In this document: piece after piece, positions 6,058 through 23,331 of the stretch | Numbering within the stretch: position 1 is the first letter of the stretch | How the letters are laid out: every line of letters starts with the position of its first letter | NCBI RefSeq assembly: GCF_000023205.1 | Contig: NC_012803.1 | Location: 1,950,001-1,982,000 of the forward strand | From: Micrococcus luteus NCTC 2665 | Lineage (GTDB): Bacteria; Actinomycetota; Actinomycetes; Actinomycetales; Micrococcaceae | Length of the DNA: 32,000 nucleotides | Direction of reading: 5' to 3' | The notes under the pieces: generated by a model | The model's database searches: none | Told to the model about the DNA's origin: nothing | Seen by the model: only the letters and a program-made list of their open reading frames with translations | Translations under genes and position numbers: made by a program

Positions 6058-6063
6058 TATGCT
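6058..6063 (+). promoter_or_regulatory. Candidate -10 hexamer TATGCT (TANNNT), 6 nt upstream of ATG 6070; leaderless-type promoter
   Basis: The sequence reads ...cagccTATGCTcaggccATG. This spacing is typical of actinobacterial leaderless transcripts. No Shine-Dalgarno sequence is present. Confidence 0.35.
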
Positions 6064-6069
6064 CAGGCC

Positions 6070-6273
6070 ATGCATCCTCGTCGGTCCCGCGCCACGTCCC
6101 ACACGGTCCAGGGTGCTGCCCAAGTCGCCCAGTCCGCACGCTCCGGCCTCAGGCCTGTGGGTCCGGAGAAGGACAAGTCGGGCTCGGGCAGGTACTGCCA
6201 CTACCACGGCAACAACCGCAAGCCCGAAGGCATCCACGCGTTCTACGGCGTGGCCGGGCAGGGGACGTGTTGA
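6070..6273 (+). CDS. Hypothetical small basic Cys/His-containing protein (67 aa)
   Basis: ATG-started ORF with about 84% GC3 by my hand count (56 of 67 codons). A -10-like hexamer sits at leaderless distance. Its stop TGA (6271-6273) overlaps the GTG start (6267) of the next ORF within GTGTTGA. The C-terminal half, GRYCHYHGNNRKPEGIHAFYG, looks non-random. I recognise no family. Confidence 0.4.
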   Translation: MHPRRSRATSHTVQGAAQVAQSARSGLRPVGPEKDKSGSGRYCHYHGNNRKPEGIHAFYGVAGQGTC

Positions 6274-6914: not shown

Positions 6915-6935
6915 GGTGTGGGCCGGGCCGTCCGC

Positions 6936-8612
6936 TCAGCCCTCCACGAGGAACCCGTCCTCGTACAGCTCCCGCAGCGCGGCCAGCAGGCCGGCCCGCC
7001 CGGCGTCGTCGAGCTCCAGCAGCGCGGCGACCGCGCCCACCAGCTGCCCCACGGACAGCTCGCCGTCGCTGGCCGAGAGCACGCCCGCCGTCGCGGTGTC
7101 CAGGCGCGCCACGCGCCGGAACCCGGAGCCCTGCCGGGCCAGGATCACCTCGGGGTGCTCCGCCCCGAACCGCTGGTGGCGCTCCTCGGTCACGTCCGCG
7201 GCCACCCGCAGGTGCAGGCCGCGCAGGGCGGCCAGGGCCGGGTCCCCGACGGCGTCCCCGGCCCCGGCGCCCGCGGCGAGCCGGTCCCGGCGGGCGACGG
7301 CGGCGGCCCACGCCCCGCCGAGGGCCTCGTCCACGGGCTGGGTCAGCTCCTCGGCGACCACCCACCCCCGGCCCTGGGAGCCGTCCGCGGTGGGCCGACG
7401 CAGCCACACGTGGCCGAAGCCGACCCCGGCCACGCCGCGGGCGTCGAAGTCCTCCAGGTACCCGCGGTAGGCGGCCTCATAGGCGGGCGGGTCGAGCTCG
7501 AGCGAGGAGTCCTGCAGCCACGTCTCCGCGTAGCCCGCGGGGTCCTGCCGGTCGCGCTGGAGGAACCAGGCCTGCATCCCCGGCGCCACCCATGAGCGCG
7601 GGCGCGCGTCCCAGGGTGCGGCGTCGGCGTCGGCGGTGTCCCCCGCCGGGATCTCCCAGTTGGCGAGCAGCTGCGCGGTGCCGCCCTCGGCGAGCACGTC
7701 CGGCAGGGCCGCGATCAGCTCCGCGACGATCCGGTCGCCCTCGCGGCCGCCGTCGCGGTAGGTCAGCACGGGCGCGGCCGGGTCCGTGCGCGGGGTGATC
7801 ACGAACGGCGGGTTCGAGACCACGAGGTCGAACCGCTCCCCCGCCACCGGCGCCAGCAGATCGCCGGCCGCCAGCCGGACCCGGTCCTCGAGCCGCTCCC
7901 GGTCGAGGCCGAGCACGTCCGCGTTGAGCAGCAGGTTGAACCGGGTGAAGGCCAGGGCACGCTCGGAGAGGTCCGTGGCGGTGACGTGGTCGGCGTGGGC
8001 GAGCAGGTGCAGGGTCTGGATCCCGCAGCCCACCCCCACGTCGAGGGCGCGGGCCACGGGACGGCGCTGCGTGGCGCCGGCGAGCGTGGGGGAGGCCCGG
8101 CCGACGCCGAGCACGTGCTCGGGAGGCAGCGGGCCGCGCCGCTGCAGGGCCGTCAGGTCCGAGGCGATCCACATCCGGCCCGGCTCGTCCGCGTCGTACG
8201 GCGAGAGGTCCACCGCGCCGCGCACGCGCCCGTCCGGCCCCTCGACGACGAGCCCGGCCGCCACGGCCCCGGCCAGGCCGAGGCTGGGCAGCGCGGCGTC
8301 GAGGTCGGCGGCGGGGACGGGGTCGCCGAGCAGCCAGGCCCCGACGGCGGCGGCGAGGCCCCGCGTGCCGTGCCGGTCGCCGGGGCCGGCTGCGTCGTCG
8401 TGCCGGCCGGGGCCCGCCAGGTGACCGGCGACGACGCGGCGGGCGGCCTCGGCGTGCTCGCGGTCCAGGGCGAGCGTGGCCACGGGTCCGAGCAGCCCCT
8501 CGACGGCGGCGGTGGTGAACGGCAGGGCCGCCAGGTCCGCGGCGAGGGCCACGGCCGTGGCCGGGGTCAGCCGCGGGGCGGGGGGCGACGGGGGTGTCGG
8601 GACGGGACTCAT
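6936..8612 (-). CDS. Class I SAM-dependent methyltransferase (MTS-type, NPPF motif), 558 aa
   Basis: Motif [12 protein letters not shown] and motif [12 protein letters not shown], with long N- and C-terminal extensions. ATG 8612 overlaps the trhO stop by 4 nt (ATGA). Confidence 0.85.
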
Positions 8613-9538
8613 GCCTCGGTCCTCTCGGCGGGGTGGGGGCGGTGGACGCAGACGGGGCAGCGGCGCTCGGGGTCGTCGGCGGCGCAGGCCGCGCAGCGGA
8701 CCTCGAGCGTGGTGCAGGCCGGGTCGGCGCAGTTGCGCAACGCCGAGGTCGGTGCCTCGCACGTGACGCACCGGCCGATGGTCTCGGCATCGGCGGTGAA
8801 GCGGGTGGACAGGCGTCGGTCGAACACGGCCAGCTCGCCCCGCCACAGTCCGGCGTCGCCGCGGGCCTCGCCGTAGCGGACGATGCCGCCGTCGAGCTGG
8901 TAGACCTCGGCGAAGCCGCGGTCCTTGAGCAGGGCGGAGAGGACCTCGCAGCGCACGCCGCCCGTGCAGTAGGTGATCAGCGGCGCGTCCTTGAGGTGGT
9001 CCAGGGCCCCGGAGTCGACGGCGGCGAGCAGGTCGCGGGTGGTGTGCGCGTCCGGGACCACGGCCCCGTCGAAGCAGCCGATGGCCGCCTCCACCGTGTT
9101 GCGGCCGTCGAGGAAACGCACGGGGTTCGCGGTGCCGGCGCGCTCGGCGACCAGCGCGTCCACCTGGACGGGCGTGAGCCGCTCCCCCGTGCCGACGACG
9201 CCGTCCGCGTCCACGGTGACGCGCTCGGGGGCCCCGAACGCGACGAGCTCGGGCTTGACCTTGACGGAGAGGCGGGGGAAGTCCGCCGCCGAGCCGTCCG
9301 ACCACTTCACCTCGAGGTCCCGGAACGCCGGATGCTCCCGCGTGCCGCGCACGTAGCGCTTGACCGCGTCGACCGGTCCGCCGACGGTCCCGTTGATCCC
9401 CTGCGGCGACACGATGATCCGGCCGGTCAGGCCGAGGGACGCGGCGAGCGTGCGCTGCCACAGCCGCACCGCCTCGGGGTCGGCGAGCGGGGTGAACCGG
9501 TAGTACAGCGCGATGCGGGAGAGGGGGGCGGTGCTCAT
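8609..9538 (-). CDS. trhO: Rhodanese-domain protein of the UPF0176/TrhO (YceA) family, tRNA U34 hydroxylase-like
   Basis: 309-aa product starting [18 protein letters not shown]. It has a rhodanese active-site loop [11 protein letters not shown] and a Cys-rich C-terminal tail (CVTC...C...C...C..C). Confidence 0.85.
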
Positions 9539-9546
9539 CGAGGTCC

Positions 9547-9552
9547 AGGCTA
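9547..9552 (-). promoter_or_regulatory. Candidate -10 hexamer TAGCCT, 8 nt upstream of the trhO ATG (leaderless or near-leaderless)
   Basis: The minus strand reads ...cacTAGCCTggacctcgATG. No Shine-Dalgarno sequence is present. Confidence 0.3.
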
Positions 9553-9616
9553 GTGCGCAGCCCCGGACGTGACGGCCGTGAGGGGCGGACGGGGCCTGGC
9601 CCGCACCGGCCACACG

Positions 9617-9624: not shown

Positions 9625-9648
9625 GGCTCTTCCCAGATGAGGGTGTAG
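9625..9648. repeat. ISL3 left terminal inverted repeat (GGCTCTTCCCAGATGAGGGTGTAG)
   Basis: It matches the reverse complement of 11058-11081 (GGCTCATCCGAATCCAGGGTGTAG) at 18 of 24 positions, including the GGCTC tip and the AGGGTGTAG block. Confidence 0.8.
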
Positions 9649-9746
9649 CGCACGTCGCGCGGCGGGCCGGCGCGTCGGTGGCCGGATAGAGGTCGAGGTC
9701 TCCCGAGGATGAGAGCTCCTACACACTCAGCCCGAAAGACCTCGAC

Positions 9747-11078
9747 GTGCACGACGCTACCGTCGGCGGGCGCGCTGATGCGTTCGCCAGCCCCGACCTG
9801 ACTGCCTTCTGCCGCCTCGACGAACTCGGCCTCGTTGTCACCGGGCAGCGACTCGAGCCGGATCGTGCCGTATTGGCCTGTCAGGTGGTCGAGCCCGACC
9901 AGTGGTGCCGGCGCTGCGGCTGCGAAGGGAGACCACGTGACACCGTGGTCCGACGGCTTGCCCACGAACCACTGGGCTGGCGGCCCACGACGCTGGAGGT
10001 CGTCGTGCGCCGTTACCGCTGCAGCGGCTGCGGGTATGTGTGGCGCCAGGACACCACCGCCGCGGCCGAGCCCCGGGCCAAGTTGTCTCGGCGCGCTCTG
10101 CGGTGGGCGCTGGAAGGGATCGTGGTCCAGCACCTGACCGTGGCTCGGGTTGCCGAGGGGCTCGGGGTGGCCTGGGACACCGCCAACGACGCCGTTCTGG
10201 CCGAGGGCAAGCGGGTGCTGATCGACGAGGAGCACCGCTTCGAGGGGGTGAAGGTCGTCGGGGTCGATGAGCACGTGTGGAGGCACACCCGTCGCGGCGA
10301 CAGGTACGTCACCGTGATCATCGACCTCACCCCAGTGCGAGATGGCACCGGCCCGGCACGGCTGCTGGACATGGTCGAAGGACGCTCCAAGCAGGCGTTC
10401 AAGACCTGGCTGGCCGACCGCCCGCAGGACTGGCGCGACGGCGTGGAGGTGGTCGCGATGGACGGCTTCACCGGGTTCAAGACCGCCGCCGTCGAGGAAC
10501 TGCCCGACGTGGTGACCGTGCTAGATCCCTTCCACGTCACGCGCCTCGCTGGCGAGGCGCTCGATGAGTGCCGACGGCGAGTTCAGCAGGCCATCTGTGG
10601 GCACCGCGGCCGCAAGGGCGACCCGCTCTATGCCGCCCGCCGGACCCTGTCCACCGGCGTCGACCTGCTCAACGACAAGCAGAAGGACCGACTGGACACC
10701 CTGTTCGCCGACGACGCCCACGTCGAGGTCGAGGTCACCTGGAGCGTCTACCAGCGCATGATCGCCGCCTACCGCCACGAGAACCGGCGCCACGGCCGCG
10801 AGCTGATGGCCCGGCTCATCGACTCGATCAGCACCGGCGTCCCCAAGGCCCTGGTCGAGATCACCAAGCTCGGCAGGACGCTGAAGAAGCGCGCCGCCGA
10901 CGTCCTGGCCTACTTCGACCGGCCCAGCACCTCCAACGGGCCCACCGAGGCGATCAACGGCAGGCTCGAGCACCTGCGCGGCTCGGCGCTGGGGTTCCGC
11001 AACCTGACCAACTACATCGCCAGATCCCTGCTCGAGACCGGCGGGTTCAGACCCCGACTACACCCTGGATTCGGATGA
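9747..11078 (+). CDS. ISL3 family transposase
   Basis: 443 aa. It has an N-terminal Zn-finger-like CRRCGC...CSGCG followed by GVDEHVW...VIIDL...MDGFTGF...LDPFHV...TSNGPTEAINGRLEHLR, which are hallmark ISL3 (DDE_Tnp_ISL3) blocks. Confidence 0.93.
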   Translation: MHDATVGGRADAFASPDLTAFCRLDELGLVVTGQRLEPDRAVLACQVVEPDQWCRRCGCEGRPRDTVVRRLAHEPLGWRPTTLEVVVRRYRCSGCGYVWRQDTTAAAEPRAKLSRRALRWALEGIVVQHLTVARVAEGLGVAWDTANDAVLAEGKRVLIDEEHRFEGVKVVGVDEHVWRHTRRGDRYVTVIIDLTPVRDGTGPARLLDMVEGRSKQAFKTWLADRPQDWRDGVEVVAMDGFTGFKTAAVEELPDVVTVLDPFHVTRLAGEALDECRRRVQQAICGHRGRKGDPLYAARRTLSTGVDLLNDKQKDRLDTLFADDAHVEVEVTWSVYQRMIAAYRHENRRHGRELMARLIDSISTGVPKALVEITKLGRTLKKRAADVLAYFDRPSTSNGPTEAINGRLEHLRGSALGFRNLTNYIARSLLETGGFRPRLHPGFG

Positions 11079-11081
11079 GCC
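11058..11081. repeat. ISL3 right terminal inverted repeat
   Basis: See the left IR. It overlaps the last codons of the transposase gene. Confidence 0.8.
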
Positions 11082-11096: not shown

Positions 11097-11870
11097 ATGA
11101 CTGAGCATCTGGATCCGGCACTGGTCGACATCTGGTTCGCGGCCTGGTCGCGATCGCGCGGCTACCGCACGAGCCAGGAGGCGGGGCGACGCGCGGCCCT
11201 GCGCACCCCTCGCCCCGCCCGCATGATCCCCGGCGGCTCCGGCCGCGCCACGGTGGACGTGCCGGCCACGTGGGAGCACGTGGTGGTGAACCCCTCCCGT
11301 GCGGAGCTCGAGGACCTGCGCGAGGCGCTGCGGGACCAGGAGCAGATCCTGCTCACCGTGTTCGGCGACGCCGGCGAGGACCCGAAGGCCATGGGTCTGA
11401 AGGCCCAGACCGAGCCGGAGCGCTTCATGACCATGGACATGGACCCCGAGCTGCAGGACGTCGAGCCCCCGCTGCTGCCCGAGGGCTATGAGGCCCGCGT
11501 GGACCAGCCGATGGAGGGCAGCCGTCGCCTGCGCATCCTGGCCGTCGGCGCCTCGACCGTGTCCGAGGGCGAGGAGGAGCTCGCCGCCCTCGGCTGGGTC
11601 ACCGAGGAGGACGGCACCGCCGTCTACGACCGGATCTGGACGTCCCCGAACCACCGTCGCCGCGGCCTCGGCTCCCTCGTGATGCGCTACCTCACCTCCG
11701 AGGTCATGAGCGAGGGTGAGATCAGCCGCGGCCTGCTCGTCGCCTCCCCGGACGGCCAGAAGCTGTACAGCCACCTGGCCTGGACCGACCTCGGCCCCGT
11801 GTCCATCTGGGGTCGCGGCCTGGCCGAGGACAACCCCACCGCCGAGCACACCGGCACCATGGGGGCGTGA
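11097..11870 (+). CDS. GNAT family N-acetyltransferase (257 aa)
   Basis: The C-terminal half carries the acetyl-CoA motif A ...IWTSPNHRRRGLGSLVMRYL.... GC3 is high. The stop overlaps the helicase start (GTGA at 11867-11870). Confidence 0.75.
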   Translation: MTEHLDPALVDIWFAAWSRSRGYRTSQEAGRRAALRTPRPARMIPGGSGRATVDVPATWEHVVVNPSRAELEDLREALRDQEQILLTVFGDAGEDPKAMGLKAQTEPERFMTMDMDPELQDVEPPLLPEGYEARVDQPMEGSRRLRILAVGASTVSEGEEELAALGWVTEEDGTAVYDRIWTSPNHRRRGLGSLVMRYLTSEVMSEGEISRGLLVASPDGQKLYSHLAWTDLGPVSIWGRGLAEDNPTAEHTGTMGA

Positions 11871-14464
11871 CCGGCCACCTCCCGGAGCACGATCCCTGGG
11901 CGGATCCCGCGGGCGGCTGGGGGCCGCCCGGCACGGCGGACGCCGCGCCGCCCGTCGACGACGCCCCGGACTTCTCCGGACCGGAGCCGCAACCCGTCGG
12001 TGCGGTGGTGGCCGACGTCGTGGCAAGGCTGTCCGTCACGGCACCTGGCGACCTGCACCCGGACACGCCGGCGGGGGCCGGACTCCGTGCGACGCTGGGC
12101 CGGACCGAGCTACCCGAGCAGATCCGCCACGTCACCGAGCTGCCCGCCCGGCAGGCCCGGCACACGGGCTGGCCCGCGGACGCGCCGGAGGGCCTGGTCA
12201 GGGCGTTCGCGGCGCGCGGCGTCGAGCGGCCGTGGCTGCACCAGGTGCGCGCCGCGACCCTGGCCGGCGCGGGGACGCACACCGTGCTCGCCACGGGCAC
12301 GGCGTCGGGCAAGTCGCTGGGCTACCAGCTGGCGGTCGGCACCCGGCTCGCCGCCGACCCCCGGGCCACCGCGCTCTACCTCGCCCCCACCAAGGCCCTC
12401 GCTGCGGACCAGCTGACCTCCTGGCGCGCCCTCGAGCGGGACGGCGCCCCGGGGCTGCGCGCGGCCCCCTACGACGGCGACACCGCACCGCAGGACCGGA
12501 TCTGGGCCCGCGAGCATGCCACCGTGCTCATGACCAACCCGGACATGCTCCACGTGGGGATCCTGCCGCACCACGAGCGGTGGGCCGCGTTCTTCCGGAA
12601 TCTGGCGTTCGTGGTGGTGGACGAGTCGCACACGTACCGGGGCGTCTTCGGCTCGCAGGTGGGGATCCTGCTGCGTCGGCTGCGGCGCATCGCCACCCAC
12701 TACCGCGGGGACCGGCCGGAGACCGTGTTCATCGGGGCGTCGGCGACGTCGGCGGATCCGGCCGGGCACTTCGCCCGACTGATCGGGGCGCCGGCCACGG
12801 CCGTCACCGAGGACGCGTCCCCGCACGGGGCGGTCACGGTGGCGTTCTGGGAGCCGGAGCTGACAGACCGCCGGGGCGAGAACGGCGCGCCCGTCCGCCG
12901 CTCGGCGATGGCCGCCGCCGCCGACCTGGTCACGGACCTGGCCCTGCAGCAGGTGCGCACGCTGGCGTTCATCCGCTCGCGGCGCGGGGCTGAGGCCATC
13001 GCCAGCGCGGCCAAGCGGCAGCTCGAGGAGGTCGAGCCGGGGCTCGGCACGCGGATCGCGGCCTACCGCTCGGGCTACCTGCCCGAGGAGCGGCGGGAGC
13101 TGGAGGCGGACCTGCGCTCGGGTCGGCTGCTGGGCATGGCCTCGACGCCGGCGCTGGAGATGGGCATCGACGTCGCGGGGCTGGACGCCGTGGTGGTGGC
13201 CGGCTGGCCGGGCACCCGCGCGTCGTTCTTCCAGCAGATCGGCCGCGCCGGGCGCGGCGGCCAGGATGCGCTCGCGTTCTTCGTGGCCTCGGACGACCCC
13301 CTGGACACGTTCGTGGTGGACCACCCGGAGGCCGTGTTCGACCTGGGCGTGGAGGACACCGTGGTGGACCCGGAGAACCCGCACCTGCTCGGCCCGCAAC
13401 TGTGCGCGGCCGCCGCGGAGCTGCCGATCACGCCCGAGGCGTTCGGCTGGTTCGGGGAGCCGGAGCGGGTGCGCGCCCTGCTGGACGTGCTGGTCGAGCA
13501 GGGGCTGCTGCGCCGTCGGCCGGCCGGCTGGTTCTGGACGCACCCCGAGCACGCCGCCGGCATGGTCTCCCTGCGGGACGACGGCGGCGGCCCCATGGAC
13601 ATCATCGACGCCGAGTCCGGCGCCCTGCTGGGCACGATGGACTCGCCCCAGACCCACTACCAGGCGCATCCCGGCGCGGTGTACGTGCACCAGGACCGCA
13701 CGTACCTCGTGGAGGAGCTGGACGAGGACGCGCACGCGGTGGTCGTCACGCGTGCCTGGCCGGACTTCACCACGCAGGCCCGGGACGTCACGGAGATCGA
13801 GATCGTGGCGGTGCACCGGCGCCTGGACGCGCGCGAGGGCACGCTGCGCTGGTGCCTCGGGGATGTGCAGGTCCGCACCCAGGTGGTGTCCTTCCAGCGC
13901 AAGGCCCTGGTCTCCGGGGAGGTGCTCGGTGAGGAGCCCCTCAACCTGCCGGCGCGGGACCTGTTCACCTCGGCGGTGTGGTTCCAGGCGGCCTCGGACG
14001 AGCTCATCGCCGCGGGACTGACCACGGATCGCCTGCCCGGCGCCCTGCACGCGGCCGAGCACGCGATGATCGGCATGATGCCGCTCGTCGCCTCGAACGA
14101 CCGCTGGGACATCGGCGGCGTCTCGATGGTCCTGCACCCGGACACCGGCTCCCCCGCCGTGTTCGTCTACGACGGCCGGCCCGGCGGGGCGGGCTTCGCC
14201 GAGCGCGGCTTCGAGCAGGCGCGGCGCTGGGTCGAGGCGACGGCGGGGGCCATCGCGGCGTGCGAGTGCACGGAGGGCTGCCCGTCCTGCGTGCAGTCCC
14301 CCAAGTGCGGCAACCGCAACAGCCCGCTGGACAAGGCCGGCGCGCTGACCGTCCTGCGGTTCCTGATGGACCACGCCGATCACCTCGTTCCGGCGGACGC
14401 CTCGACCGACGGCTCGGGCGGCGGCGCCTCCGGCGGGTCCGCGGACCCGGCGCCCGGGGCCTGA
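11867..14464 (+). CDS. SF2 DExH-box helicase with a C-terminal DUF1998 / MrfA-type Zn-binding domain (Rv3649 / SftH / 'helicase-secretion neighbourhood' type)
   Basis: 865 aa. It has Walker A LATGTASGKS, a DExH box VVVDESHTY, SAT, helicase-C motifs ...TPALEMGIDV...QQIGRAGRGG, and a C-terminal four-Cys cluster CECTEGCPSCVQSPKCGNRN. The N-terminal ~70 aa are low complexity, so the exact start is uncertain. Confidence 0.9.
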   Translation: MTGHLPEHDPWADPAGGWGPPGTADAAPPVDDAPDFSGPEPQPVGAVVADVVARLSVTAPGDLHPDTPAGAGLRATLGRTELPEQIRHVTELPARQARHTGWPADAPEGLVRAFAARGVERPWLHQVRAATLAGAGTHTVLATGTASGKSLGYQLAVGTRLAADPRATALYLAPTKALAADQLTSWRALERDGAPGLRAAPYDGDTAPQDRIWAREHATVLMTNPDMLHVGILPHHERWAAFFRNLAFVVVDESHTYRGVFGSQVGILLRRLRRIATHYRGDRPETVFIGASATSADPAGHFARLIGAPATAVTEDASPHGAVTVAFWEPELTDRRGENGAPVRRSAMAAAADLVTDLALQQVRTLAFIRSRRGAEAIASAAKRQLEEVEPGLGTRIAAYRSGYLPEERRELEADLRSGRLLGMASTPALEMGIDVAGLDAVVVAGWPGTRASFFQQIGRAGRGGQDALAFFVASDDPLDTFVVDHPEAVFDLGVEDTVVDPENPHLLGPQLCAAAAELPITPEAFGWFGEPERVRALLDVLVEQGLLRRRPAGWFWTHPEHAAGMVSLRDDGGGPMDIIDAESGALLGTMDSPQTHYQAHPGAVYVHQDRTYLVEELDEDAHAVVVTRAWPDFTTQARDVTEIEIVAVHRRLDAREGTLRWCLGDVQVRTQVVSFQRKALVSGEVLGEEPLNLPARDLFTSAVWFQAASDELIAAGLTTDRLPGALHAAEHAMIGMMPLVASNDRWDIGGVSMVLHPDTGSPAVFVYDGRPGGAGFAERGFEQARRWVEATAGAIAACECTEGCPSCVQSPKCGNRNSPLDKAGALTVLRFLMDHADHLVPADASTDGSGGGASGGSADPAPGA

Positions 14465-14823
14465 GACCGCGGCGGACCCGCGACGGCGTCGGCCGTGGCC
14501 GCCGGCAGCGGGGCGCGGGCGAGCTCGACCGCGACGCGCACCGTCCCGTCCTCGCGCGCCTCGCACGCCACGACTGCGGCCCCGTTGCGTTCGGCGGTCC
14601 GCCCGGCCAGGACGCACGGCTCGTGGTCGGAGAGCCCGCGCCGGGCGTCGGAGGCGGCGAGCGCCGCCAGGTCAGCGGCCCCGGCCGCCCGGGCACCGGT
14701 GACCGAGGCCTGCCCCAGCGCCGCGACGGCCAGCAGCAGCCCCGCCCCCAGGGCGGCCGTGCCCAGGACGGACACGGTGCCCGAGCCGCGTTCGCCCCGC
14801 ACGGGCGCCCTCCCGCAGGTCAT
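14380..14823 (-). CDS. TadE-like protein of the Rv3654c / 'helicase-secretion neighbourhood' type
   Basis: It has a hydrophobic N-terminal helix GSGTVSVLGTAALGAGLLLAVAAL followed by ...AAGAADLAALAASDA...C...NGAAVVAC...VRVAVE, which matches my recollection of this family. ATG 14823 overlaps the upstream stop (ATGA). The Pro-rich C-terminal tail overlaps the helicase 3' end. Confidence 0.65.
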   Translation of the reverse strand: MTCGRAPVRGERGSGTVSVLGTAALGAGLLLAVAALGQASVTGARAAGAADLAALAASDARRGLSDHEPCVLAGRTAERNGAAVVACEAREDGTVRVAVELARAPLPAATADAVAGPPRSQAPGAGSADPPEAPPPEPSVEASAGTR

Positions 14824-15263
14824 GACCGGTCCTCCGGCCCGGCGGCGGGCGTTCCGGGCCGCTGCTCGGGGGCGGCGGCGTGCGCGGTGAGAGTGAGGGC
14901 CTCGGCCCAGGCGAGCGGCCCGGGGCTGGGCTGGACGACCTCGACGGTCACCCAGCCGCCCTCGACGGTGTGCGAGAGCGAGGCGTCGTCGCCGGCCATG
15001 CGCGCCACCGCGTCGCGGGCCGCCGCCTCGTCGTCGCCCCGGGCGAGGATGCGGGCGGCCGACGCCGCCGCGTCCTGACCCCGCACCTGCTGCACCGCGG
15101 CTGCGCCGGCCAGCAGGACGGACACGAGCACGAACGCGATCACGGGCAGCAGCACCGCGTACTCGGCGGTGACGGCCCCGGTCTCGCCGCCCCGGGACCA
15201 CCCCGCCGTCCGGGCGCCCGTGCGGCGCGCGGACGGCGGGGCGGAGGTCGGGTGCTCAGTCAC
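14820..15263 (-). CDS. TadE-like pilus/pseudopilin protein (147 aa)
   Basis: It has the GGETG/AVTAEYAVLLPVIAFVLVSVLLAG motif (Flp/TadE-type G/xxxxEY followed by a hydrophobic helix). GTG 15263 overlaps the pilin gene's end by 8 nt. Confidence 0.75.
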   Translation of the reverse strand: MTEHPTSAPPSARRTGARTAGWSRGGETGAVTAEYAVLLPVIAFVLVSVLLAGAAAVQQVRGQDAAASAARILARGDDEAAARDAVARMAGDDASLSHTVEGGWVTVEVVQPSPGPLAWAEALTLTAHAAAPEQRPGTPAAGPEDRS

Positions 15264-15489
15264 GCTGGAGCGCCCCGGAGACGAGGTCCACGAGCAGCGA
15301 CTGCACGTCCGGGCTGGTGAGCACGACGGCCAGCACGCCCGCGAAGCCCACGGCGGCGAGCGTGAGGATGCCGTACTCGGCCGTGATCGCGCCGGTCTCC
15401 TCGCCCGCGGCGTCGACGACGCGGGCGAGGCGGTCGCGGTCGCTCGGGCGGGTGACGGCGGGCTGGGCGGTGTGGGAGCGGTGGGTCAT
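15256..15489 (-). CDS. Flp-type pilin-like small protein (77 aa; DUF4244 / Rv3656c-like)
   Basis: It has a charged leader, then EETG/AITAEYGILTLAAVGFAGVLAVVL (G/xxxxEY processing motif plus a single hydrophobic helix). A strong AGGAGG RBS lies 7 nt upstream of ATG 15489. Confidence 0.75.
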   Translation of the reverse strand: MTHRSHTAQPAVTRPSDRDRLARVVDAAGEETGAITAEYGILTLAAVGFAGVLAVVLTSPDVQSLLVDLVSGALQRD

Positions 15490-15508
15490 GGTGGTCCTCC
15501 TGGAGTGG

Positions 15509-15525
15509 GCCCCGCGGTGCGGGGC
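15509..15525 (-). other. GC hairpin (GCCCCGC-GGT-GCGGGGC) just upstream of the pilin RBS
   Basis: Perfect 7-bp stem with a 3-nt loop, about 8 nt from the RBS. Its function (processing, stability or attenuation) is unknown. Confidence 0.3.
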
Positions 15526-15628
15526 GGTGATGACGGCCCGGCCGGGCCGCTGGTCCCAGGCTGGCCCGCTCGGGGGCTCGCGCGCCGGGGGCGGCGCGGA
15601 TCCGGGGATGGGCCGGGGCGATCGGGGC

Positions 15629-15646
15629 CCTGTGCAGGACCGGACG
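15629..15646 (-). repeat. Copy 1 of an 18-nt intergenic motif (plus strand CCTGTGCAGGACCGGACG)
   Basis: 17/18 identical to 18242-18259. Each copy lies 14-19 nt beyond the stop of the upstream minus-strand gene, and 127-140 nt upstream of the next Tad gene's start. Confidence 0.35.
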
Positions 15647-15665
15647 CCCCGGCGTCGCCGCCGCC

Positions 15666-16793
15666 TCAGCCCGGTCCCGCCCTGAGCAGGGCCATGACGA
15701 CGGGCACCACGCCCCAGCACACGAAGGCGGGCAGCAGGCACAGCCCCAGCGGCATCACCAGGCACACGGCGAGCTCCTCGGCCGCCCGTTCGTCGGCCCG
15801 TCGGGTCTGCTGACGGACGGCGGCGGCGGTCTCGGCCAGCGTGCGGGCGCCGGCCATCCCGGACCGATGCAGCGGTCGCAGTCGGGCGGCGGTCTCGATC
15901 CACACCGGGTCCGTGTCGAGGCCCGCCCACGCCTCGTCCCAGTCCCGGCCCCACAGCAGCAGCGCCGCCGTGGCCCGCAGGCCGCGGGCGCCCGGCAGGG
16001 TCCGGCCGAGGTCGTCCAGCGCGGCGGGCAGGGATCGGCCGGCGCTGAGCAGCGCCGCCAGCACGTCCAGCACGACGGCGGCGCCCACCGCCGCCGGCTC
16101 GCGCGCGGCCGCACGCAGCAGCAGGCGCGTCCAGGACCGCCCGGCCAGCCAGAACAGCAGCCCCACCGCGGCGACCACGGCGCCGAAGGGCGAGCGGACC
16201 AGGTCCCACGGGGAGGTGCCGAGCAGCCACGCGAGGCCGAGGCCGCCCAGGGGCAGCCACTGCAGCAGTCGGGACGTCGCGCCCGGCCCCGCCGCGGCCG
16301 AGCGGCGGGCCCGGGCCGCGTCCACGTCCGCCTCGAGACTGTGGGCCAGCCGCCGGGCCACGGCTGCGGGAGCGGCACCCGCCCGGGCCCCGGCCGCGAG
16401 CGCCGCGTCGACCAGCGCCCAGCCCGGGTCCCGTGCGGGGGTCCGCCAGGGCAGGGTCCCGCCGCGGCGCGCCGCCTCCCCGGTCGGCGCATGCGACGCC
16501 GGCACATCCCAGGCCAGCGCCTCGGCCCGGCGTCGGGCGTGGTGATGGGCACAGCATGCGGTCCCCACCTCGCCCGGGTCCGACCCGCAGGCGGGCAGGG
16601 TGCACGCGGTCTCCCGCCAGGCCTGCTCCTCGGTCAGGCCGGCCGAGACGAGGGCGGCCCAGCGGCGCAGGACGCCGACGAGCACCTCCGTCTCCTCCTC
16701 CGGCCTCGCCCGCCCCGCCCGCCAGGGCGGCAGCGCCACGGCACGCCCAGCGCGCGACCGTCGTGCCTGCCCGGCTGCCGTCGTCGTGCTCAC
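15666..16793 (-). CDS. Fused TadB-TadC-like platform protein (two T2SS-F domains in one 375-aa polypeptide)
   Basis: Two successive helical cytoplasmic segments are each followed by hydrophobic TM pairs (...LLQWLPLGGLGLAWLLG.../...AVVAAVGLLFWLA... and ...LAVCLVMPLGLCLLPAFVCWGVVPVVMALL). GTG 16793 overlaps the ATPase stop (GTGA). There is no in-frame stop between the two halves. Confidence 0.72.
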   Translation of the reverse strand: MSTTTAAGQARRSRAGRAVALPPWRAGRARPEEETEVLVGVLRRWAALVSAGLTEEQAWRETACTLPACGSDPGEVGTACCAHHHARRRAEALAWDVPASHAPTGEAARRGGTLPWRTPARDPGWALVDAALAAGARAGAAPAAVARRLAHSLEADVDAARARRSAAAGPGATSRLLQWLPLGGLGLAWLLGTSPWDLVRSPFGAVVAAVGLLFWLAGRSWTRLLLRAAAREPAAVGAAVVLDVLAALLSAGRSLPAALDDLGRTLPGARGLRATAALLLWGRDWDEAWAGLDTDPVWIETAARLRPLHRSGMAGARTLAETAAAVRQQTRRADERAAEELAVCLVMPLGLCLLPAFVCWGVVPVVMALLRAGPG

Positions 16794-18115
16794 CGGCCGC
16801 TCCGCCCCGCCAGCCGGGCTGCGAACGCGGGCACGCCGGGTCCCTCGACGGTCCGCCCACCCGCCGCCTCCGTCCCGGGCCGCCACGTGAGGGCGGGCAG
16901 CAGGGCGAACCCGTCGGCGCGCGGGTCCGGGACGGCGAGTTCGACTGGATGCCGCCCGTGGCCGTCGCGGGCGACGTGCAGCACGGCGTCCACGCCGGCG
17001 CGGGCCTGCGCGGCCACCGTCTCGGGCCGCCAGCTGGCCAGGGAGGCCATGGCCGTCAGCCGGGCGGGCACCTCGGCGGCGGCGTTGGCGTGCAGGGTGC
17101 CCCACGCGCCCTGGTGTCCCGTGTTCAGGGCGGTGAGGACGTCGGCCACCTCGGCGCCGCGGCACTCGCCGACCACGAGCCGGTCCGGCCGCATCCGCAG
17201 CGCGTGGCGGACGAGCTCGGCCAGTCCGACCTCGCCGGCGCCCTCCGCGTTGGCGGCGCGGCACTGCAGGGCGACCACGTGCGGGTGATCGGGCGCGGCC
17301 TCGGCCGTGTCCTCCACGACGACGATCCGTTCGTCCCCCGGCACCCGGCCGAGGGCCGCGGAGAGCAGCGTGGTCTTGCCCGCCCCGGTCGCGCCGCTGA
17401 CCAGGACGGTGGCACGGTCGCGCACGAGCGCCTCGAGGGCGTCGGCCCAGAGGGCGCCGTCCGGCCAGCCGTCGGCCAGCGCGGTCAGCGACGGCGTCGT
17501 CGCGGCCGGGATCCGCAGGCTCAGCAAGGTGCCGCCGCCGCTGACCGGGGGCAGGACCGCGTGGACGCGCACGCCGCCCACGCGGGCGTCGGCCAGCGGC
17601 ACCGCCGCGTCGAGGCGCCGGCCGGCCCGGTGCAGCAGCCGCACCGCGAGCGCCCGGGCGGTCTCGGGGTCGAGCCGACCGGGGCGGCGGACGAGGCCCT
17701 CGTCCCCGTCGGTCCACACCGCGCCCGCGCCGTCCACGAGCACGTCGGTCACGCCCGGGGTGCGCACCCAGGGTGCGAGCGGGCCGAAGCCGTCGAGCTC
17801 ATCGACCAGCGCCGCCACGCGCGGGTCGTCGATCGGCGCGTCGAGGGCCTCGGCGATCAGCGGGACCAGCGGCGGCTCCGCCCCGTCTGCGGCCGACGCA
17901 CGGGCCTCGGCCACGCGCCGGCGCACGACGGCGGCGTCCAGCCCGCCGGGGCCCGCTGCGGGTGCGGCCAGCGGCGGCGCGGCGACCTGCGTGCGTTCCG
18001 GCTCGGCCGGGTCAGTGCGGGGCCACGGGAACCGTCGGCTGCCCTCGGGCGGGGCGGGGCGGCGGCGGCGGCCCCGGGGCGGGCGGGCCGGGGCGGCGGG
18101 GACGAACGGGCGCAT
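16790..18115 (-). CDS. TadA/CpaF-type secretion ATPase (Rv3659c-like)
   Basis: It has Walker A VSGATGAGKTTLL, Walker B/Asp box RIVVVEDTAE, ...RMRPDRLVVGECRGAE... and ...LNTGHQGAWGTLHAN (His box). Start set at ATG 18115, which has AGGAGG 7 nt upstream. The N-terminal ~90 aa are Pro/Arg/Ala-rich. Confidence 0.9.
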   Translation of the reverse strand: MRPFVPAAPARPPRGRRRRPAPPEGSRRFPWPRTDPAEPERTQVAAPPLAAPAAGPGGLDAAVVRRRVAEARASAADGAEPPLVPLIAEALDAPIDDPRVAALVDELDGFGPLAPWVRTPGVTDVLVDGAGAVWTDGDEGLVRRPGRLDPETARALAVRLLHRAGRRLDAAVPLADARVGGVRVHAVLPPVSGGGTLLSLRIPAATTPSLTALADGWPDGALWADALEALVRDRATVLVSGATGAGKTTLLSAALGRVPGDERIVVVEDTAEAAPDHPHVVALQCRAANAEGAGEVGLAELVRHALRMRPDRLVVGECRGAEVADVLTALNTGHQGAWGTLHANAAAEVPARLTAMASLASWRPETVAAQARAGVDAVLHVARDGHGRHPVELAVPDPRADGFALLPALTWRPGTEAAGGRTVEGPGVPAFAARLAGRSGR

Positions 18116-18273: not shown

Positions 18274-19083
18274 TCAGCCGCGCAGGATCCGGTGGGTCCG
18301 CGCGTCACGCACGCGGGAGTCGTCCCACGGCACGTCCCAGCCCAGCAGTGCCAGCACACGGTCCAGCAGCGCCGCCGTGAACCCCCACACCAGGCGCTCG
18401 CCCACGAGAAAGCCCGGCGTCTCGCCGCGTCGCCCGCCGGGCCGGGCCACGCGGCACCGGTTCGCGGGGTCCACCAGGTCCGCGACCGGCATCCGGAACA
18501 CGGCCGCGGCCTCGGCCTGGTCGACCACCGCCACGCGACTGGGGTCCCGCCACCACCCGAGCACCGGGTGCACCACGTTCCCGGAGACCACCACCGGCAC
18601 CGCCGGCAGCACGCCCAGGACCTCCACGCCGGCCGGGTCCAAGCCGGTCTCCTCCTGCGCCTCGCGCAGGGCCGTGGCCACGACGTCGGCGTCCTCGGGG
18701 TCGACGCGACCGCCGGGGAACGCGATCTGCCCTGCGTGCTGGCGCAGGGTGGCGGCGCGCTGGGTCAGCAGCACGTCCACGTGCGGGTGCACGCGCTCGG
18801 CGTCGTGACGGGCGGGGACGTCGTCGAGGGCGCCGAACAGGATCAGCACGGCGGAGGGGCGCGGATCGCCGGACCGGGGCCAGTCGAAGCCCCACATCGG
18901 CACGGCCTCGGGCGGGATTGTGGTGAGCGAGGCCGGGTCGTGGTGACCGGGCGCGTCCGCAGGGGCCGCGCCCCACCGCGCCACGAGCTCCGCCAGCTGG
19001 TCCCGCGCACCCGCCAGGGACGCGTCGGACGTCCCGACGGCGTCGCGGGAGGTCGGGCGGGGGCTCGCGGGGGTCTCAGACAT
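18274..19083 (-). CDS. NUDIX hydrolase, CoA pyrophosphatase-like
   Basis: 269 aa with a canonical Nudix box FPGGRVDPEDADVVATALREAQEETGL. It lies near nth, as in mycobacteria (Rv3672c-like). Confidence 0.85.
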   Translation of the reverse strand: MSETPASPRPTSRDAVGTSDASLAGARDQLAELVARWGAAPADAPGHHDPASLTTIPPEAVPMWGFDWPRSGDPRPSAVLILFGALDDVPARHDAERVHPHVDVLLTQRAATLRQHAGQIAFPGGRVDPEDADVVATALREAQEETGLDPAGVEVLGVLPAVPVVVSGNVVHPVLGWWRDPSRVAVVDQAEAAAVFRMPVADLVDPANRCRVARPGGRRGETPGFLVGERLVWGFTAALLDRVLALLGWDVPWDDSRVRDARTHRILRG

Positions 19084-19090
19084 GGCCCCC

Positions 19091-19096
19091 ACGCTA
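19091..19096 (-). promoter_or_regulatory. Candidate -10 hexamer TAGCGT, 7 nt upstream of the Nudix ATG (leaderless-type)
   Basis: The minus strand reads ggcggcTAGCGTgggggccATG. The whole divergent intergenic region is only 36 bp. Confidence 0.35.
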
Positions 19097-19107
19097 GCCG
19101 CCGGTCG

Positions 19108-19113
19108 TAGCCT
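19108..19113 (+). promoter_or_regulatory. Candidate -10 hexamer TAGCCT, 6 nt upstream of ATG 19120 (leaderless-type)
   Basis: The sequence reads cggtcgTAGCCTcgggacATG. Confidence 0.35.
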
Positions 19114-19119
19114 CGGGAC

Positions 19120-20325
19120 ATGACGGCTCCCCTGACCTCGCCCCCGGCGGCCACCGCGTCCCCGGATCCGGTGGACGTCGCGGTGATCGGCGCCGGCCAG
19201 GCCGGACTGGCGGCCGGGTACTTCCTGGCGCGGGCCGCGCGGGACGTCGGCCGCGGACGCCGGCCGGGCCCGCCGCCGTCGTTCGTCCTGCTCGACGCGT
19301 CCGCCCGGCCCGGCGGCGCGTGGCCGCACCACTGGGACTCCCTGCGCCTGTTCTCCCCCGCCGAGCACTCCTCCCTGCCGGGCCGACCCATGCCGCCGTC
19401 GCCCGGCCCCGGCACCCCGGACGCCGGGCACGTCGTCGCGTACCTGGCCGACTACGAGGACCGCTACGGGCTGCCGGTGCGCCGGGGCGTGCGTGTCGCG
19501 GAGGTGACGCACGACGCCGCCGCGTCCCCTCCGTTCACCCTGCAGCTCGAGGACGGCACGGCCCTGGGCGCCCGCGCGGTGGTCTCCGCCACCGGCTCGT
19601 TCACCCGCCCGTTCATGCCGGCCCTCCCGGGCGTCGACCACTTCGGCGGCACGCAGCGGCATTCCGCCGCGTACCGCTCCCCCGACGCGTTCACCGGGCG
19701 GCACGTCCTCGTGGTGGGCGGCGGCAACTCGGGCGCCCAGATCGCGGCGGACCTGCTGCTGGCGGGTGTCGCCACCACGTGGGCCACCCGGCGTCCGCCC
19801 CGGTTCATGCCGGACGACGTGGACGGGCGGGTGCTCTTCGATCGGGCCTCGGCGCGCGTGCTGGGCCGCTCCGAGGCGCGCGTGGGCGACCTCGGGGACA
19901 TCGTCATGGTGCCCTCGGTGATCCGCGCCCGCGACGGGGCCGGGCTCCACGCGGTCCCCGCGCCCACCGCGCTCACGCCGGACGGCGTCCGCTGGGACCA
20001 CGACGCCGGCGCGAGCCACGGCTGGCCCGCCGCCAACCGCGCCGCGGCCCGGGTGCGCGGCGCCGAGCACCCGGTGGACGACATCGTCTGGTGCACGGGC
20101 TTCCGGGCGGACCTGCGCCATCTGCGGGGCCTCGAGCTGACCCGCCACCCCTCCGGGGCGCCGGCGACGGAGCGTGCACTGCCGACCGCCTCGGTGGACG
20201 TGCCGGGGCTGCACCTGCTCGGCTACGACGACTGGTGCGGGGCCGCCTCGGCCACGCTCGCGGGCGTGGGGGCTCACGCGCGCCGGGCGGTCGCCGCGAT
20301 CCTCGCGGGTCTCACCGAAGGCTGA
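19120..20325 (+). CDS. FAD/NAD(P)-binding oxidoreductase (flavin monooxygenase / pyridine nucleotide-disulfide oxidoreductase-like)
   Basis: 401 aa with two dinucleotide-binding motifs, VAVIGAGQAGLAAG and LVVGGGNSGAQIA. Confidence 0.8.
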   Translation: MTAPLTSPPAATASPDPVDVAVIGAGQAGLAAGYFLARAARDVGRGRRPGPPPSFVLLDASARPGGAWPHHWDSLRLFSPAEHSSLPGRPMPPSPGPGTPDAGHVVAYLADYEDRYGLPVRRGVRVAEVTHDAAASPPFTLQLEDGTALGARAVVSATGSFTRPFMPALPGVDHFGGTQRHSAAYRSPDAFTGRHVLVVGGGNSGAQIAADLLLAGVATTWATRRPPRFMPDDVDGRVLFDRASARVLGRSEARVGDLGDIVMVPSVIRARDGAGLHAVPAPTALTPDGVRWDHDAGASHGWPAANRAAARVRGAEHPVDDIVWCTGFRADLRHLRGLELTRHPSGAPATERALPTASVDVPGLHLLGYDDWCGAASATLAGVGAHARRAVAAILAGLTEG

Positions 20326-20346
20326 GCGGGCAGGCCGGGCGCTCAG
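20322..20346. terminator. Small bidirectional hairpin whose arms contain both convergent stop codons (cTGAgcg ... cgcTCAg)
   Basis: 7-bp inverted repeat CTGAGCG/CGCTCAG with an 11-nt spacer, between the oxidoreductase and nth genes. Confidence 0.3.
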
Positions 20347-21149
20347 GCCTCCAGCCCGTGGCCGAGGGCGCGCAGCTCCCGGCGCGTCCGCCCCGCGCGC
20401 AGGAGCTCGAGCAGCTCCTCCCGGCCGGGCTTGAGCTCGTAGGCCAGCAGGGCGCGCGCCCGCTCGGGGTCGGTCTCCCCCGCGCCGTAGGACGGGCACC
20501 AGCGGGCGATCGGGCACGCCCCGCACGCCGGGCGGCGCGCGTGGCACACGCGGCGGCCGTGGAAGATCAGCCGGTGGGAGAGCATCGTCCAGTCCCGGCG
20601 GGGGAACAGGGCGCCCACGGCGTGCTCGACCTTCACCGGGTCGGTCTCGTCCGTGAACCCCAGGCGCCGGGCGAGCCGGCCGAAGTGCGTGTCCACGGTG
20701 ATCCCGGGCTGGCCGAAGGCGTTGCCGAGCACCACGAACGCGGTCTTGCGGCCCACCCCGGGCAGCGCCACGAGGTCCTCGAGACGGGCGGGGACCTCGC
20801 CGTCGTGCCGGCCCACGAGCTCCTGGGACAGCCGCAGGATCGCGGAGGCCTTGTTCCGGTAGAACCCCGTGGAGCGCACGAGCTCCTGCAGCTCGGGCTC
20901 GGTGGCCGCGGCCATCGCGTGGGCATCCGGGAAGCGGGCGAACAGCGCCGGCGTGGCTGCGTTGACCCGCACGTCGGTGGTCTGGGCGGACAGCACCGTG
21001 GCCACGAGCAGCTCGAACGGCGTCTCGAAGTCCAGCTCGGCGACGGCGTACGGGTACGTCTCGGCCAGGATCCGGTCGATCCGCCGCGCCCGGCGCACCA
21101 GGGCCAGCCGGGTCTCCCCGGTCGGCGTGCCCGTCGACTCCGTCTCCAT
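20343..21149 (-). CDS. nth: Endonuclease III
   Basis: 268 aa with Hh[17 protein letters not shown]...VDTH and a 4Fe-4S loop C-x6-C-x2-C-x5-C ([17 protein letters not shown]). A GGGAGGA RBS precedes ATG 21149. Confidence 0.93.
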
Positions 21150-21323
21150 CCGCGTGTCCTCCCGCCCTCGTGCGATCCGCTCAGGTCCGACCATCCTAGG
21201 GAGCGGGGCGCATGCCGACGTCCACACCGGGTCCGGCCCCCGCTTCCGGGCGCGATGCGACACACAGGACCCGAGGATTTGTGGCGACGACGCCGCGCGC
21301 GGCATGCTGAGGCGGGAGACTAG

Positions 21324-21339
21324 TGTGGGACGCGTCACA
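21324..21339. promoter_or_regulatory. Candidate CRP/GlxR-type operator TGTGGGACGCGTCACA upstream of acs
   Basis: 9/10 match to TGTGA-N6-TCACA. It lies 45 nt upstream of the acs ATG and overlaps a TANNNT hexamer (TAGTGT, 21321-21326). Confidence 0.45.
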
Positions 21340-21383
21340 TCCGCGCCACGCACCGACCGCACCACCCCGAAAGGACCCCGTCG

Positions 21384-23324
<1,941 letters not shown>

Positions 23325-23331
23325 GCCGGCA

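Follow-up and report, generated by a model that had tools for sequence, protein, structure and literature searches.

Introduction

Natural transformation of Micrococcus luteus depends on Tad pilus genes, which Angelov et al. (2015) described in two clusters (PMC4322843). We have analysed a 32,000-nucleotide (nt) stretch of the chromosome of strain NCTC 2665, referred to below as the window, in which the second of these clusters, tad-2 (Mlut_18150-Mlut_18190), converges on a gene pair encoding a GNAT-family acetyltransferase and a DExH helicase (Mlut_18140). Deletion of any tad-2 gene abolished natural transformation, Mlut_18150 being reported as essential, and an adherence or aggregation phenotype was not seen in the mutants (PMC4322843). 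Tagged Flp, a 77-amino-acid (aa) protein (Mlut_18170) with a G/XXXXEY motif, formed filaments on competent cells, and the processed protein was identified as the major pilin by mass spectrometry (PMC4322843). The fusion of tadB with tadC in tad-2 has been described, TadZ is absent from M. luteus and the sole TadV candidate, Mlut_05160, lies elsewhere in the genome (PMC4322843); a CpaE-like gene, Mlut_14640, is found at another M. luteus locus (PMC8467076).

The window contains this same locus: its gene order and fused tadBC agree with the published cluster, as do the 77-aa Flp and the lack of TadZ and of any TadV close by. The helicase, the GNAT gene, an ISL3 insertion and an upstream box shared within tad-2, all of which are described here, are not discussed in that paper (PMC4322843). 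We consider it rather probable that the tad-2 pilus and the GNAT-helicase operon are two separate functional units which have been neighbours since early actinobacterial evolution.

With the Tad/Cpa systems of Aggregatibacter actinomycetemcomitans and Caulobacter crescentus the window shares a CpaF/TadA ATPase, a T2SSF platform, a Flp-type pilin with the G/XXXXEY motif and TadE/F-like pseudopilins. In contrast to those systems, tad-2 belongs to a Gram-positive organism, is without secretin, RcpB/C and TadD, and has neither TadZ/CpaE nor TadV in the cluster, while its pilin is a DUF4244 rather than a Flp_Fap protein. Its function also differs, being DNA uptake, for which the second cluster (tad-1) is needed as well, whereas the Tad/Cpa systems serve adhesion (PMC4322843).

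The closest described relatives of the helicase act on DNA. Mycobacterium smegmatis SftH is a monomeric, single-stranded DNA (ssDNA)-dependent 3'-5' DNA translocase/helicase (PMC3424565), and MrfA (YprA) supports mitomycin C repair in Bacillus subtilis (PMC7797055).

In Mycobacterium tuberculosis, Rv3649 and Rv3654c-Rv3660c resemble the window in their TIGR03817, TIGR03816, NF041390, DUF4244 and TadA families and in a helicase that is convergent on the tad operon. The window differs from this arrangement in lacking Ssd (TIGR03815), in the fusion of tadB and tadC, in a TadA that scores slightly below the family cutoff and in the GNAT gene preceding the helicase. PE/PPE genes also separate helicase and tad in M. 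tuberculosis, whereas none stands between them in the window. Flagged in TIGRFAMs for years, the helicase neighbourhood is an annotation-level curiosity: in the open-access literature searched, the name of the neighbourhood occurs in one unrelated paper, and no paper addresses the link of the helicase to the secretion genes. M. luteus offers a test bed for the pairing, being naturally transformable and having markerless deletion tools.

Results

Identity and organisation of the locus

The G+C content of the window is 72-81%, and shadow frames make up most of any raw list of its open reading frames (ORFs). Gene calling therefore relied on a GC3 frame plot (third-position G+C periodicity) and on direct reading of junctions, and families were assigned by profile scans (TIGRFAM/NCBIfam, Pfam, PADLOC), PDB comparison and tblastn. 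The window is identical to the M. luteus NCTC 2665 chromosome record LS483396.1 over 8,774 nt (0 mismatches, 100% identity), the encoded Flp and TadA match ACS31300.1 (C5CCU8_MICLC) and ACS31302.1 exactly, and the quantitative PCR primers published for tadA2 (Mlut_18190) by Lichev et al. 2019 match exactly at 17274-17292 and 17361-17381. Because of this sequence identity and the exact Flp and TadA matches, the five minus-strand genes are the published tad-2 cluster, Mlut_18150-Mlut_18190 (PMC4322843). The pilus genes are thus an already known, experimentally characterised competence system in the same species. The two convergent units consist of the following features.

11097..11870, plus strand: GNAT gene (presumably Mlut_18130), 257 aa, Pfam Acetyltransf_1/FR47
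11867..14464, plus strand: helicase Mlut_18140, 865 aa, TIGR03817 at 1092 bits (cutoff 874)
14380..14823, minus strand: distal TadE/TadG-like gene, Mlut_18150, 147 aa, TIGR03816 at 60 bits
14820..15263, minus strand: TadE-family minor pilin gene, Mlut_18160, 147 aa, NF041390 at 66 bits
15256..15489, minus strand: flp, major competence pilin gene, Mlut_18170, 77 aa, DUF4244 at 66 bits
15490..15665, minus strand: flp upstream region, 176 nt, with a GGAGGA ribosome-binding site and a TCCTGCACAGG box
15666..16793, minus strand: fused tadBC, Mlut_18180, 375 aa, PF00482 T2SSF
16790..18115, minus strand: tadA2, Mlut_18190, 441 aa, TIGR03819 at 361 bits, PF00437
18116..18273, minus strand: tadA2 upstream region, with the second TCCTGCACAGG copy, then GTGTCCCCAG

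The TGA stop of the GNAT gene is overlapped by the GTG start of the helicase (GTGA). As read at the junctions, the overlaps within tad-2 are GTGA (4 nt), GTGACTGA (8 nt) and ATGA (4 nt), the last joining the TadE and distal TadE/G-like genes. The helicase 3' end and the distal TadE/G-like gene are convergent and overlap by 85 nt; this overlap depends on low-complexity, non-conserved C-terminal tails, and a 24-nt gap is found there in a second Micrococcus species. A scan for consensus promoters and terminators across 9500-18400 gave no match and is uninformative at 75% G+C; an Rfam search of the window gave no match.

A preliminary description of the window had already reported much of this layout. 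Junction reading and family scans bear out its coupling, through GTGA, of a GNAT gene to an 865-aa helicase with a four-Cys module, and the minus-strand operon, its 176-bp gap and the overlap with the helicase lie where it had placed them; the 4-, 8- and 4-nt overlaps and the G/A(I/V)TAEY motifs were likewise read directly. Its statement that tad clusters are needed for M. luteus transformation is published fact (PMC4322843), and the window is that locus. Its rating of the whole as an uncharacterised system does not stand, as published work includes deletion phenotypes for all the tad-2 genes and the identification of Flp by mass spectrometry (PMC4322843).

Conservation of the helicase-Tad neighbourhood

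The neighbourhood was surveyed at 80 helicase loci with 10-kb flanks, one genome per species, fetched by means of an alignment of ten helicases and drawn from the Micrococcales, Propionibacteriales, Micromonosporales, Streptomycetales, Pseudonocardiales, Mycobacteriales, Frankiales and Geodermatophilales. Homologues of the window proteins were located by tblastn, and TadA was counted where the downstream flank reached 8 kb or more. The 10 kb downstream of the helicase include a TadA gene in 61/67 loci, convergent with the helicase in 60/67, while topA is present within 10 kb upstream in 61/70. The six helicase loci lacking TadA within 10 kb belong to Kribbella (three), Nesterenkonia sedimenti, Rhodococcus triatomae and one metagenome-assembled genome. 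The helicase-Tad adjacency is real and old; its conservation in Actinobacteria, as stated in the preliminary description, is confirmed, and the TIGRFAM family names cited for it are correct. Tad is no more faithful a neighbour of the helicase than topA. As topA is about equally constant, nothing beyond inherited gene order is needed to account for the adjacency.

These genes form a syntenic block, topA...helicase...tad...nudix/nth, in which the helicase gene, present in one copy, has been inherited vertically and keeps its position across the phylum. The preliminary description had made its case hang on co-occurrence beyond local synteny, and here the outcome goes halfway against it, the adjacency not being demonstrably above the synteny baseline set by topA. 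With respect to the TIGRFAM helicase/secretion neighborhood, the window has the TIGR03817 helicase convergent on a tad-like operon and is without Ssd as first gene of that operon.

The helicase Mlut_18140

Judged from its domains, Mlut_18140 is a superfamily 2 (SF2) DExH DNA helicase of the MrfA/YprA/SftH family with a Zn-binding domain. Pfam identifies PF00270 (DEAD), PF00271 (Helicase_C), PF22982 (WHD_HRQ1) and PF09369 (MZB/DUF1998), the motor carries a DESH motif, and the order of SF2 motor, winged helix and C-terminal four-Cys, Zn-binding MZB domain is that of MrfA (YprA) and SftH. The cysteines C799/C801/C805/C808 (C-x-C-x3-C-x2-C) and C814 are invariant in an alignment of ten relatives. 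The protein gives a full-length alignment (aa 86-811) with B. subtilis YprA/MrfA 6ZNP (E 1.6e-128), from which, as from SftH, the protein differs by a low-complexity N-terminal extension of ~85 residues and a C-terminal tail of 30 residues. The first ~70 residues are not conserved beyond Micrococcus; the long start is supported by GC3 periodicity and by NCBI protein records of 865-874 aa. In contrast to MrfA, no MrfB-type exonuclease gene is adjacent, the tandem GNAT gene standing upstream instead, and family scans found no MrfB-like exonuclease gene in the window.

By analogy with SftH and MrfA, whose biochemistry had been given correctly in the preliminary description (PMC3424565, PMC7797055), 3'-5' DNA helicase activity is expected of Mlut_18140, and DNA repair, not pilus function, is most likely its job. 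On balance we regard Mlut_18140 as a repair-type 3'-5' DNA helicase which is co-expressed with the tandem GNAT and whose function is distinct from that of the pilus assembly genes. The published record is small. Mlut_18140 is unmentioned in Angelov et al. 2015 (PMC4322843); the supplements of the M. luteus papers from 2015, 2019 and 2021 hold no data on the helicase or the GNAT gene, only the tadA2 primers; and in the open-access literature searched the sole mention is in Table 3 of Torasso Kasem et al. 2021 (PMC8467076).

The tandem-GNAT gene and the upstream ISL3 element

Pfam matches in the GNAT protein are limited to aa 159-226. In its AlphaFold model (predicted local distance difference test 85, predicted template modelling score 0.85) two GNAT-fold halves are predicted, with the acetyl-CoA motif in the active half, as in tandem GNATs, and the best PDB folds are the tandem GNATs 4IUS, VipF, 2WPW, 3FRM and MshD (template modelling scores of ~0.45-0.55), 2WPW being the tandem GNAT of the clavulanate pathway. 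An alignment of 18 orthologues shows no variation in the acetyl-CoA motif R188-x-G190-L191-G192 and a conserved N-terminus; because of the latter, ATG 11097 is taken as the true start.

The GNAT gene is present in 25/27 Micrococcaceae loci and in 0/43 other loci. The orthologues detected by tblastn on the fetched loci are full length, with 30-41% identity (E 1e-22 to 1e-41), and occur in Citricoccus, Arthrobacter, Paenarthrobacter, Pseudarthrobacter, Glutamicibacter, Paeniglutamicibacter, Yaniella, Sinomonas and Nesterenkonia; Kocuria and Rothia are without a GNAT gene upstream of the helicase. Orthologues are on the helicase strand and directly upstream of it in 24/25 loci, with a 2.1-kb gap in the remaining one, that of N. 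sedimenti (L052). The GTGA overlap is found only in Micrococcus, the junction being TGAGTG in Citricoccus and a gap of 13-250 nt elsewhere. Upstream of the helicase in other orders stand two small divergent genes and a gene of ~780 aa, with no GNAT. N. sedimenti retains GNAT and helicase while Tad is absent within 10 kb, which indicates that GNAT goes with the helicase and not with Tad. The GNAT gene is thus a Micrococcaceae-level positional partner of the helicase, not of the pilus, and the pair would form an operon in which GNAT, with its acetyl-CoA motif intact, is co-expressed with the helicase.

A word-indexed search had made GNAT appear to be a Micrococcus-only or sporadic gene, identity falling from 56% to 35%; the tblastn orthologues rule this out. 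The lineage specificity proposed in the preliminary description was therefore sound at the level of the family, whereas its suggestion that GNAT belongs to a unit with the pilus is not supported, and the sporadic neighbour which it had named as the adverse outcome is not what was found.

Immediately upstream of the GNAT gene lies a mobile element.

9625..11081, plus strand: ISL3-family insertion sequence, transposase 9747..11078, NF033550 at 360 bits

The element is bounded by 24-nt terminal inverted repeats (9625-9648 and 11058-11081) and by a perfect 8-bp target duplication, CCTTACCC, at 9617-9624 and 11082-11089, and the GNAT start codon is 15 nt past the insertion site. This copy is present in NCTC 2665 and CP007437.1, and an empty site with a single CCTTACCC is found in a skin-metagenome M. 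luteus contig (L090). ISL3 is outside the system but parts the GNAT-helicase operon from its native upstream region, and expression of the operon in the laboratory strains may be altered by it. Truncation or delivery of GNAT by ISL3 was ruled out, as the N-terminus (MT..L..W) is conserved across genera and the empty site has the same ATG 15 nt past the single CCTTACCC.

The tad-2 pilus genes

The components of a Tad pilus are represented in tad-2 by a TadA/CpaF-type secretion ATPase, a TadB/TadC platform in a single 375-aa protein, a short Flp prepilin and TadE/F-like pseudopilins. TadA2 scores 361 bits against TIGR03819, slightly below the cutoff of 373, and 142 bits against PF00437 (T2SSE), and its closest solved structure in the PDB comparison is CpaF 8RKD (E 8e-50). 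In tadBC the Pfam T2SSF domain is detectable in aa 242-360 only; in Citricoccus, Yaniella and Arthrobacter, aa ~28-230 and ~230-370 align to a pair of separate neighbouring genes that lie in different frames, the N-terminal half matching tadB, and the protein gives one continuous match in Micrococcus L001, so that among the compared genera the fusion is confined to Micrococcus. The processing motifs are G/AITAEY in Flp and G/AVTAEY in TadE, which matches NF041390 (TadE_Rv3655c) at 66 bits. The distal protein, Mlut_18150, matches TIGR03816, 'Rv3654c family TadE-like', at 60 bits (cutoff 51), with a weak PF13400 match.

No Ssd/CpaE (TIGR03815) was detected in the window by tblastn with two validated TIGR03815 proteins, nor is there an Ssd/CpaE gene between tadA2 and the Nudix gene (18274..19083), and prepilin peptidase (TadV) and secretin are absent among the annotated genes of the window. 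These three absences had been noted in the preliminary description; of the profiles that it had listed as a check, TIGR03816, TIGR03817, DUF1998, DUF4244 and T2SSF all gave matches, TIGR03819 fell slightly short of its cutoff and TIGR03815 was absent by tblastn. Across the survey, Ssd precedes tadA in 57/61 sampled Tad-positive loci. By tblastn it is missing from M. luteus (window 18116-18273), Micrococcus sp. L001, two Citricoccus species, Yaniella and Rothia (L004, L005, L020 and L028) and is kept in Kocuria; Ssd has been lost in some lineages.

tad-2 comprises two predicted transcription units, tadA2-tadBC and flp-tadE-tadG-like. By analogy with Tad/Cpa systems, a peptidase encoded elsewhere (Mlut_05160) would first cut the prepilins at G/A(I/V)TAEY. 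A TadA2 hexamer, as the CpaF structures would lead one to expect, would then drive insertion and polymerisation of Flp subunits at the TadBC platform; the two TadE/G-like proteins may prime or anchor the fibre, and the fibre would deliver DNA to ComEA/ComEC.

Relation between the helicase operon and the competence pilus

Several observations argue that the pilus and the GNAT-helicase operon are separate. The helicase and tad genes are not co-transcribed, because they are convergent on opposite strands. topA is an equally constant neighbour of the helicase and six loci keep the helicase without nearby Tad; the helicase is also kept in Firmicutes, where the B. subtilis orthologue works in mitomycin C repair with MrfB and without Tad genes. 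In addition, only Mlut_18150-18190 are listed as required in the 2015 study although ORFs flanking the tad clusters were also deleted (PMC4322843). The convergent adjacency would, on this interpretation, be inherited gene order in the conserved topA...helicase...tad...nudix/nth block, with at most a loose, non-essential link of the helicase to the handling of incoming DNA. The only hint of a functional connection between helicase and pilus is two Mlut_18140 alleles from chemical mutagenesis.

These alleles are among the points that weigh against separation. R4 and R13, two independent ethyl methanesulfonate (EMS) mutants from a screen for repressed expression of competence genes (comEA/EC), have one single-nucleotide polymorphism (SNP) each in Mlut_18140 (PMC8467076). 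The SNPs are given as C1962653T and C1964134T; the corresponding CP007437.1 bases are A and G, as the numbering of the paper differs, and no amino-acid change is assignable. Convergent adjacency is, moreover, kept in ~90% of the sampled genomes and in at least seven actinobacterial orders, a long time for unrelated genes to stay together, and the flanking ORFs deleted in the 2015 study may or may not have included the helicase (PMC4322843). A translocase of the FtsK/SpoIIIE type flanks tad-1, and a point mutant in it transforms at least 1000-fold less (PMC8467076), which suggests that DNA motors beside tad clusters can matter. Finally, no ComFA-type motor is reported in M. luteus, which has only ComEA, ComEC and DprA homologues (PMC4322843).

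The alternative to which these points lend themselves is that helicase and pilus form one DNA-uptake machine, in which an SftH-type 3'-5' translocase pulls in or unwinds incoming DNA or aids recombination. The Flp pilus would capture DNA, ComEC would pass a single strand, the helicase would replace ComFA and, in Micrococcaceae, GNAT would modulate the process. The convergent adjacency in 60/67 loci of many orders, the naming of TIGRFAM families after the helicase/secretion neighborhood, the two EMS alleles, the tad-1 translocase, the unreported ComFA and the monomeric, ssDNA-dependent 3'-5' translocation of SftH (PMC3424565) are all consistent with such a machine. We nevertheless hold it to be unlikely. 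Convergent transcription, the constancy of topA, the retention of the helicase apart from Tad and the deletions listed in the 2015 study (PMC4322843) speak against it as they speak for two units, and other mutations in both EMS strains explain their phenotypes: R4 also carries Mlut_14650 G27D, shown to be causal, and R13 a tadA1 mutation, while the Mlut_18140 alleles were never re-introduced singly (PMC8467076). The Mlut_14650/40/30 locus, CpaB/CpaE-like and located elsewhere in the genome, itself affects transformation (PMC8467076). Furthermore, the experimental strains transform well despite ISL3 between the operon and its native upstream region. The more specific proposal that the helicase, with the tandem GNAT in Micrococcaceae, is a working part of Tad-pilus transformation, possibly a cytoplasmic ssDNA motor or processing helicase replacing ComFA, appears distinctly doubtful. 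The DNA-uptake module put forward in the preliminary description therefore survives in its pilus part, which is published, and finds no support in its union of helicase and pilus, against which convergence, the topA baseline and the Tad-less loci all count.

That the locus serves a conjugation-like export of DNA, or the secretion of proteins, in place of uptake is very improbable. It would find a basis in the NCBIfam name of TIGR03819, 'conjugal transfer-associated ATPase', and in the resemblance of TadA2 to VirB11/TrbB ATPases (155 and 134 bits). M. tuberculosis Rv3654c/Rv3655c are also said to be secreted effectors. The CpaF match of TadA2 (E 8e-50) is, however, far stronger than that to VirB11 (E 1e-24), family scans found no relaxase, coupling protein or oriT-type genes in the window, and the region is core chromosome with conserved synteny and is not a mobile element. 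In M. luteus itself, tad-2 deletion led to loss of transformation with no adherence or aggregation phenotype (PMC4322843).

That GNAT and helicase are a YprA-family anti-phage module, a relative of DISARM, Druantia or Dpd merely beside pilus genes, is scarcely credible and was rejected: a 2025 preprint surveying the YprA family does place many of its helicases in defence systems, with Tad genes and acetyltransferases unmentioned, but the PADLOC matches of the helicase to BrxH, DruE, DpdF and DrmA models are partial (29-100 bits), dwarfed by the 1092 bits of TIGR03817 and by a full-length match to the repair helicase MrfA, GNAT and the neighbouring genes tested, apart from the more distant DUF7059 methyltransferase gene, have no PADLOC match, methylase, nuclease and other partner genes are absent beside the pair, and single-copy vertical inheritance in fixed synteny is unlike defence islands.

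Upstream boxes of tad-2 and DnaA-box repeats in other Actinobacteria

The 32-kb window holds just two exact copies of the 11-mer TCCTGCACAGG, both on the minus strand in sense orientation: one lies 140 nt upstream of flp, at 15629-15639, and the other, at 18242-18252, is 127 nt upstream of tadA2. Each copy is followed after ~20 nt by a weaker copy of the TCCCCAG/TCCCCGG type, which at tadA2 is GTGTCCCCAG, and both TCCTGCACAGG sites are kept in Micrococcus sp. L001 (14543-14553 and 17155-17165). The flp upstream region is probably the flp promoter/operator, and the box is a candidate for an operator/promoter element shared by both tad-2 transcription units. No description of it was found in the papers searched, PMC4322843 included.

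At the equivalent sites upstream of ssd-tad and flp, most other Actinobacteria carry tandem direct repeats of TTGTCCACAGG or TTATCCACAGG, with a start-to-start spacing of mostly 19 or 27-28 nt (loci L006-L083, up to 300 nt upstream of ssd/tadA and flp; for example L071 19117-19146, L073 18371-18398 and L016 17938-17965). High-affinity DnaA boxes are TTGTCCACA in M. tuberculosis and Streptomyces coelicolor and TTATCCACA in Escherichia coli and B. subtilis (PMC4285127, Table 1). Perfect DnaA boxes number 56 in 3.3 Mb of loci, and 36 of them, all in sense orientation, fall in the 38.6 kb made up of the 300-nt stretches upstream of ssd/tadA and flp, a ~150-fold enrichment. This distribution suggests that DnaA, or a factor of the same specificity, regulates the ssd-tad/flp operons of those Actinobacteria; if the boxes are real binding sites, expression of pilus or competence genes would be tied to the replication initiator and replication status. 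TCCTGCACAGG, which occupies the same places in Micrococcus, might then be a variant of the box. No report linking DnaA boxes to tad or ssd was found in the literature searched. The M. luteus window has no perfect DnaA box, its two one-mismatch matches being at chance level, so that the DnaA-box idea applies to the relatives and not directly to M. luteus itself. In some Arthrobacter-group loci, similar boxes are also present upstream of topA and of a DUF7059 methyltransferase gene.

Flanking genes

The flanks of the window form a conserved actinobacterial block. On the left (1..9613) are trkA, proC, a sugar-phosphate isomerase-like gene, ppx, topA (3032..5968), a DUF7059 methyltransferase gene (6936..8612) and a TrhO-like rhodanese gene (8609..9538). 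On the right (18274..29553) are a Nudix CoA pyrophosphatase gene (18274..19083), nth (ending at 20343), acs, gntR, an SNF transporter gene, a MarP-like protease gene, crp and a RidA-like gene. The block resembles the Rv3646c-Rv3678c region of M. tuberculosis.

Between the Nudix gene and nth lies an ArsO-like flavin monooxygenase gene (19120..20325; 405 bits, cutoff 425), a position occupied in Micrococcus sp. L001 by a LysE-family gene, which points to a variable spot in the conserved block. A plus-strand ORF of 215 aa (6267..6914) has good codon periodicity and no Pfam or PADLOC match, and tblastn found no counterpart in the 83 other loci examined, that of the other Micrococcus species included. 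The DUF7059/MTS methyltransferase (6936..8612) matches PADLOC mad2 at 64 bits through its methyltransferase domain only, which is probably generic methyltransferase similarity. Towards the right end of the window an IS3-family element (29741..30936; orfA with a transposase helix-turn-helix, orfB with an rve integrase core) is abutted by a multicopper oxidase gene (30955..31953).

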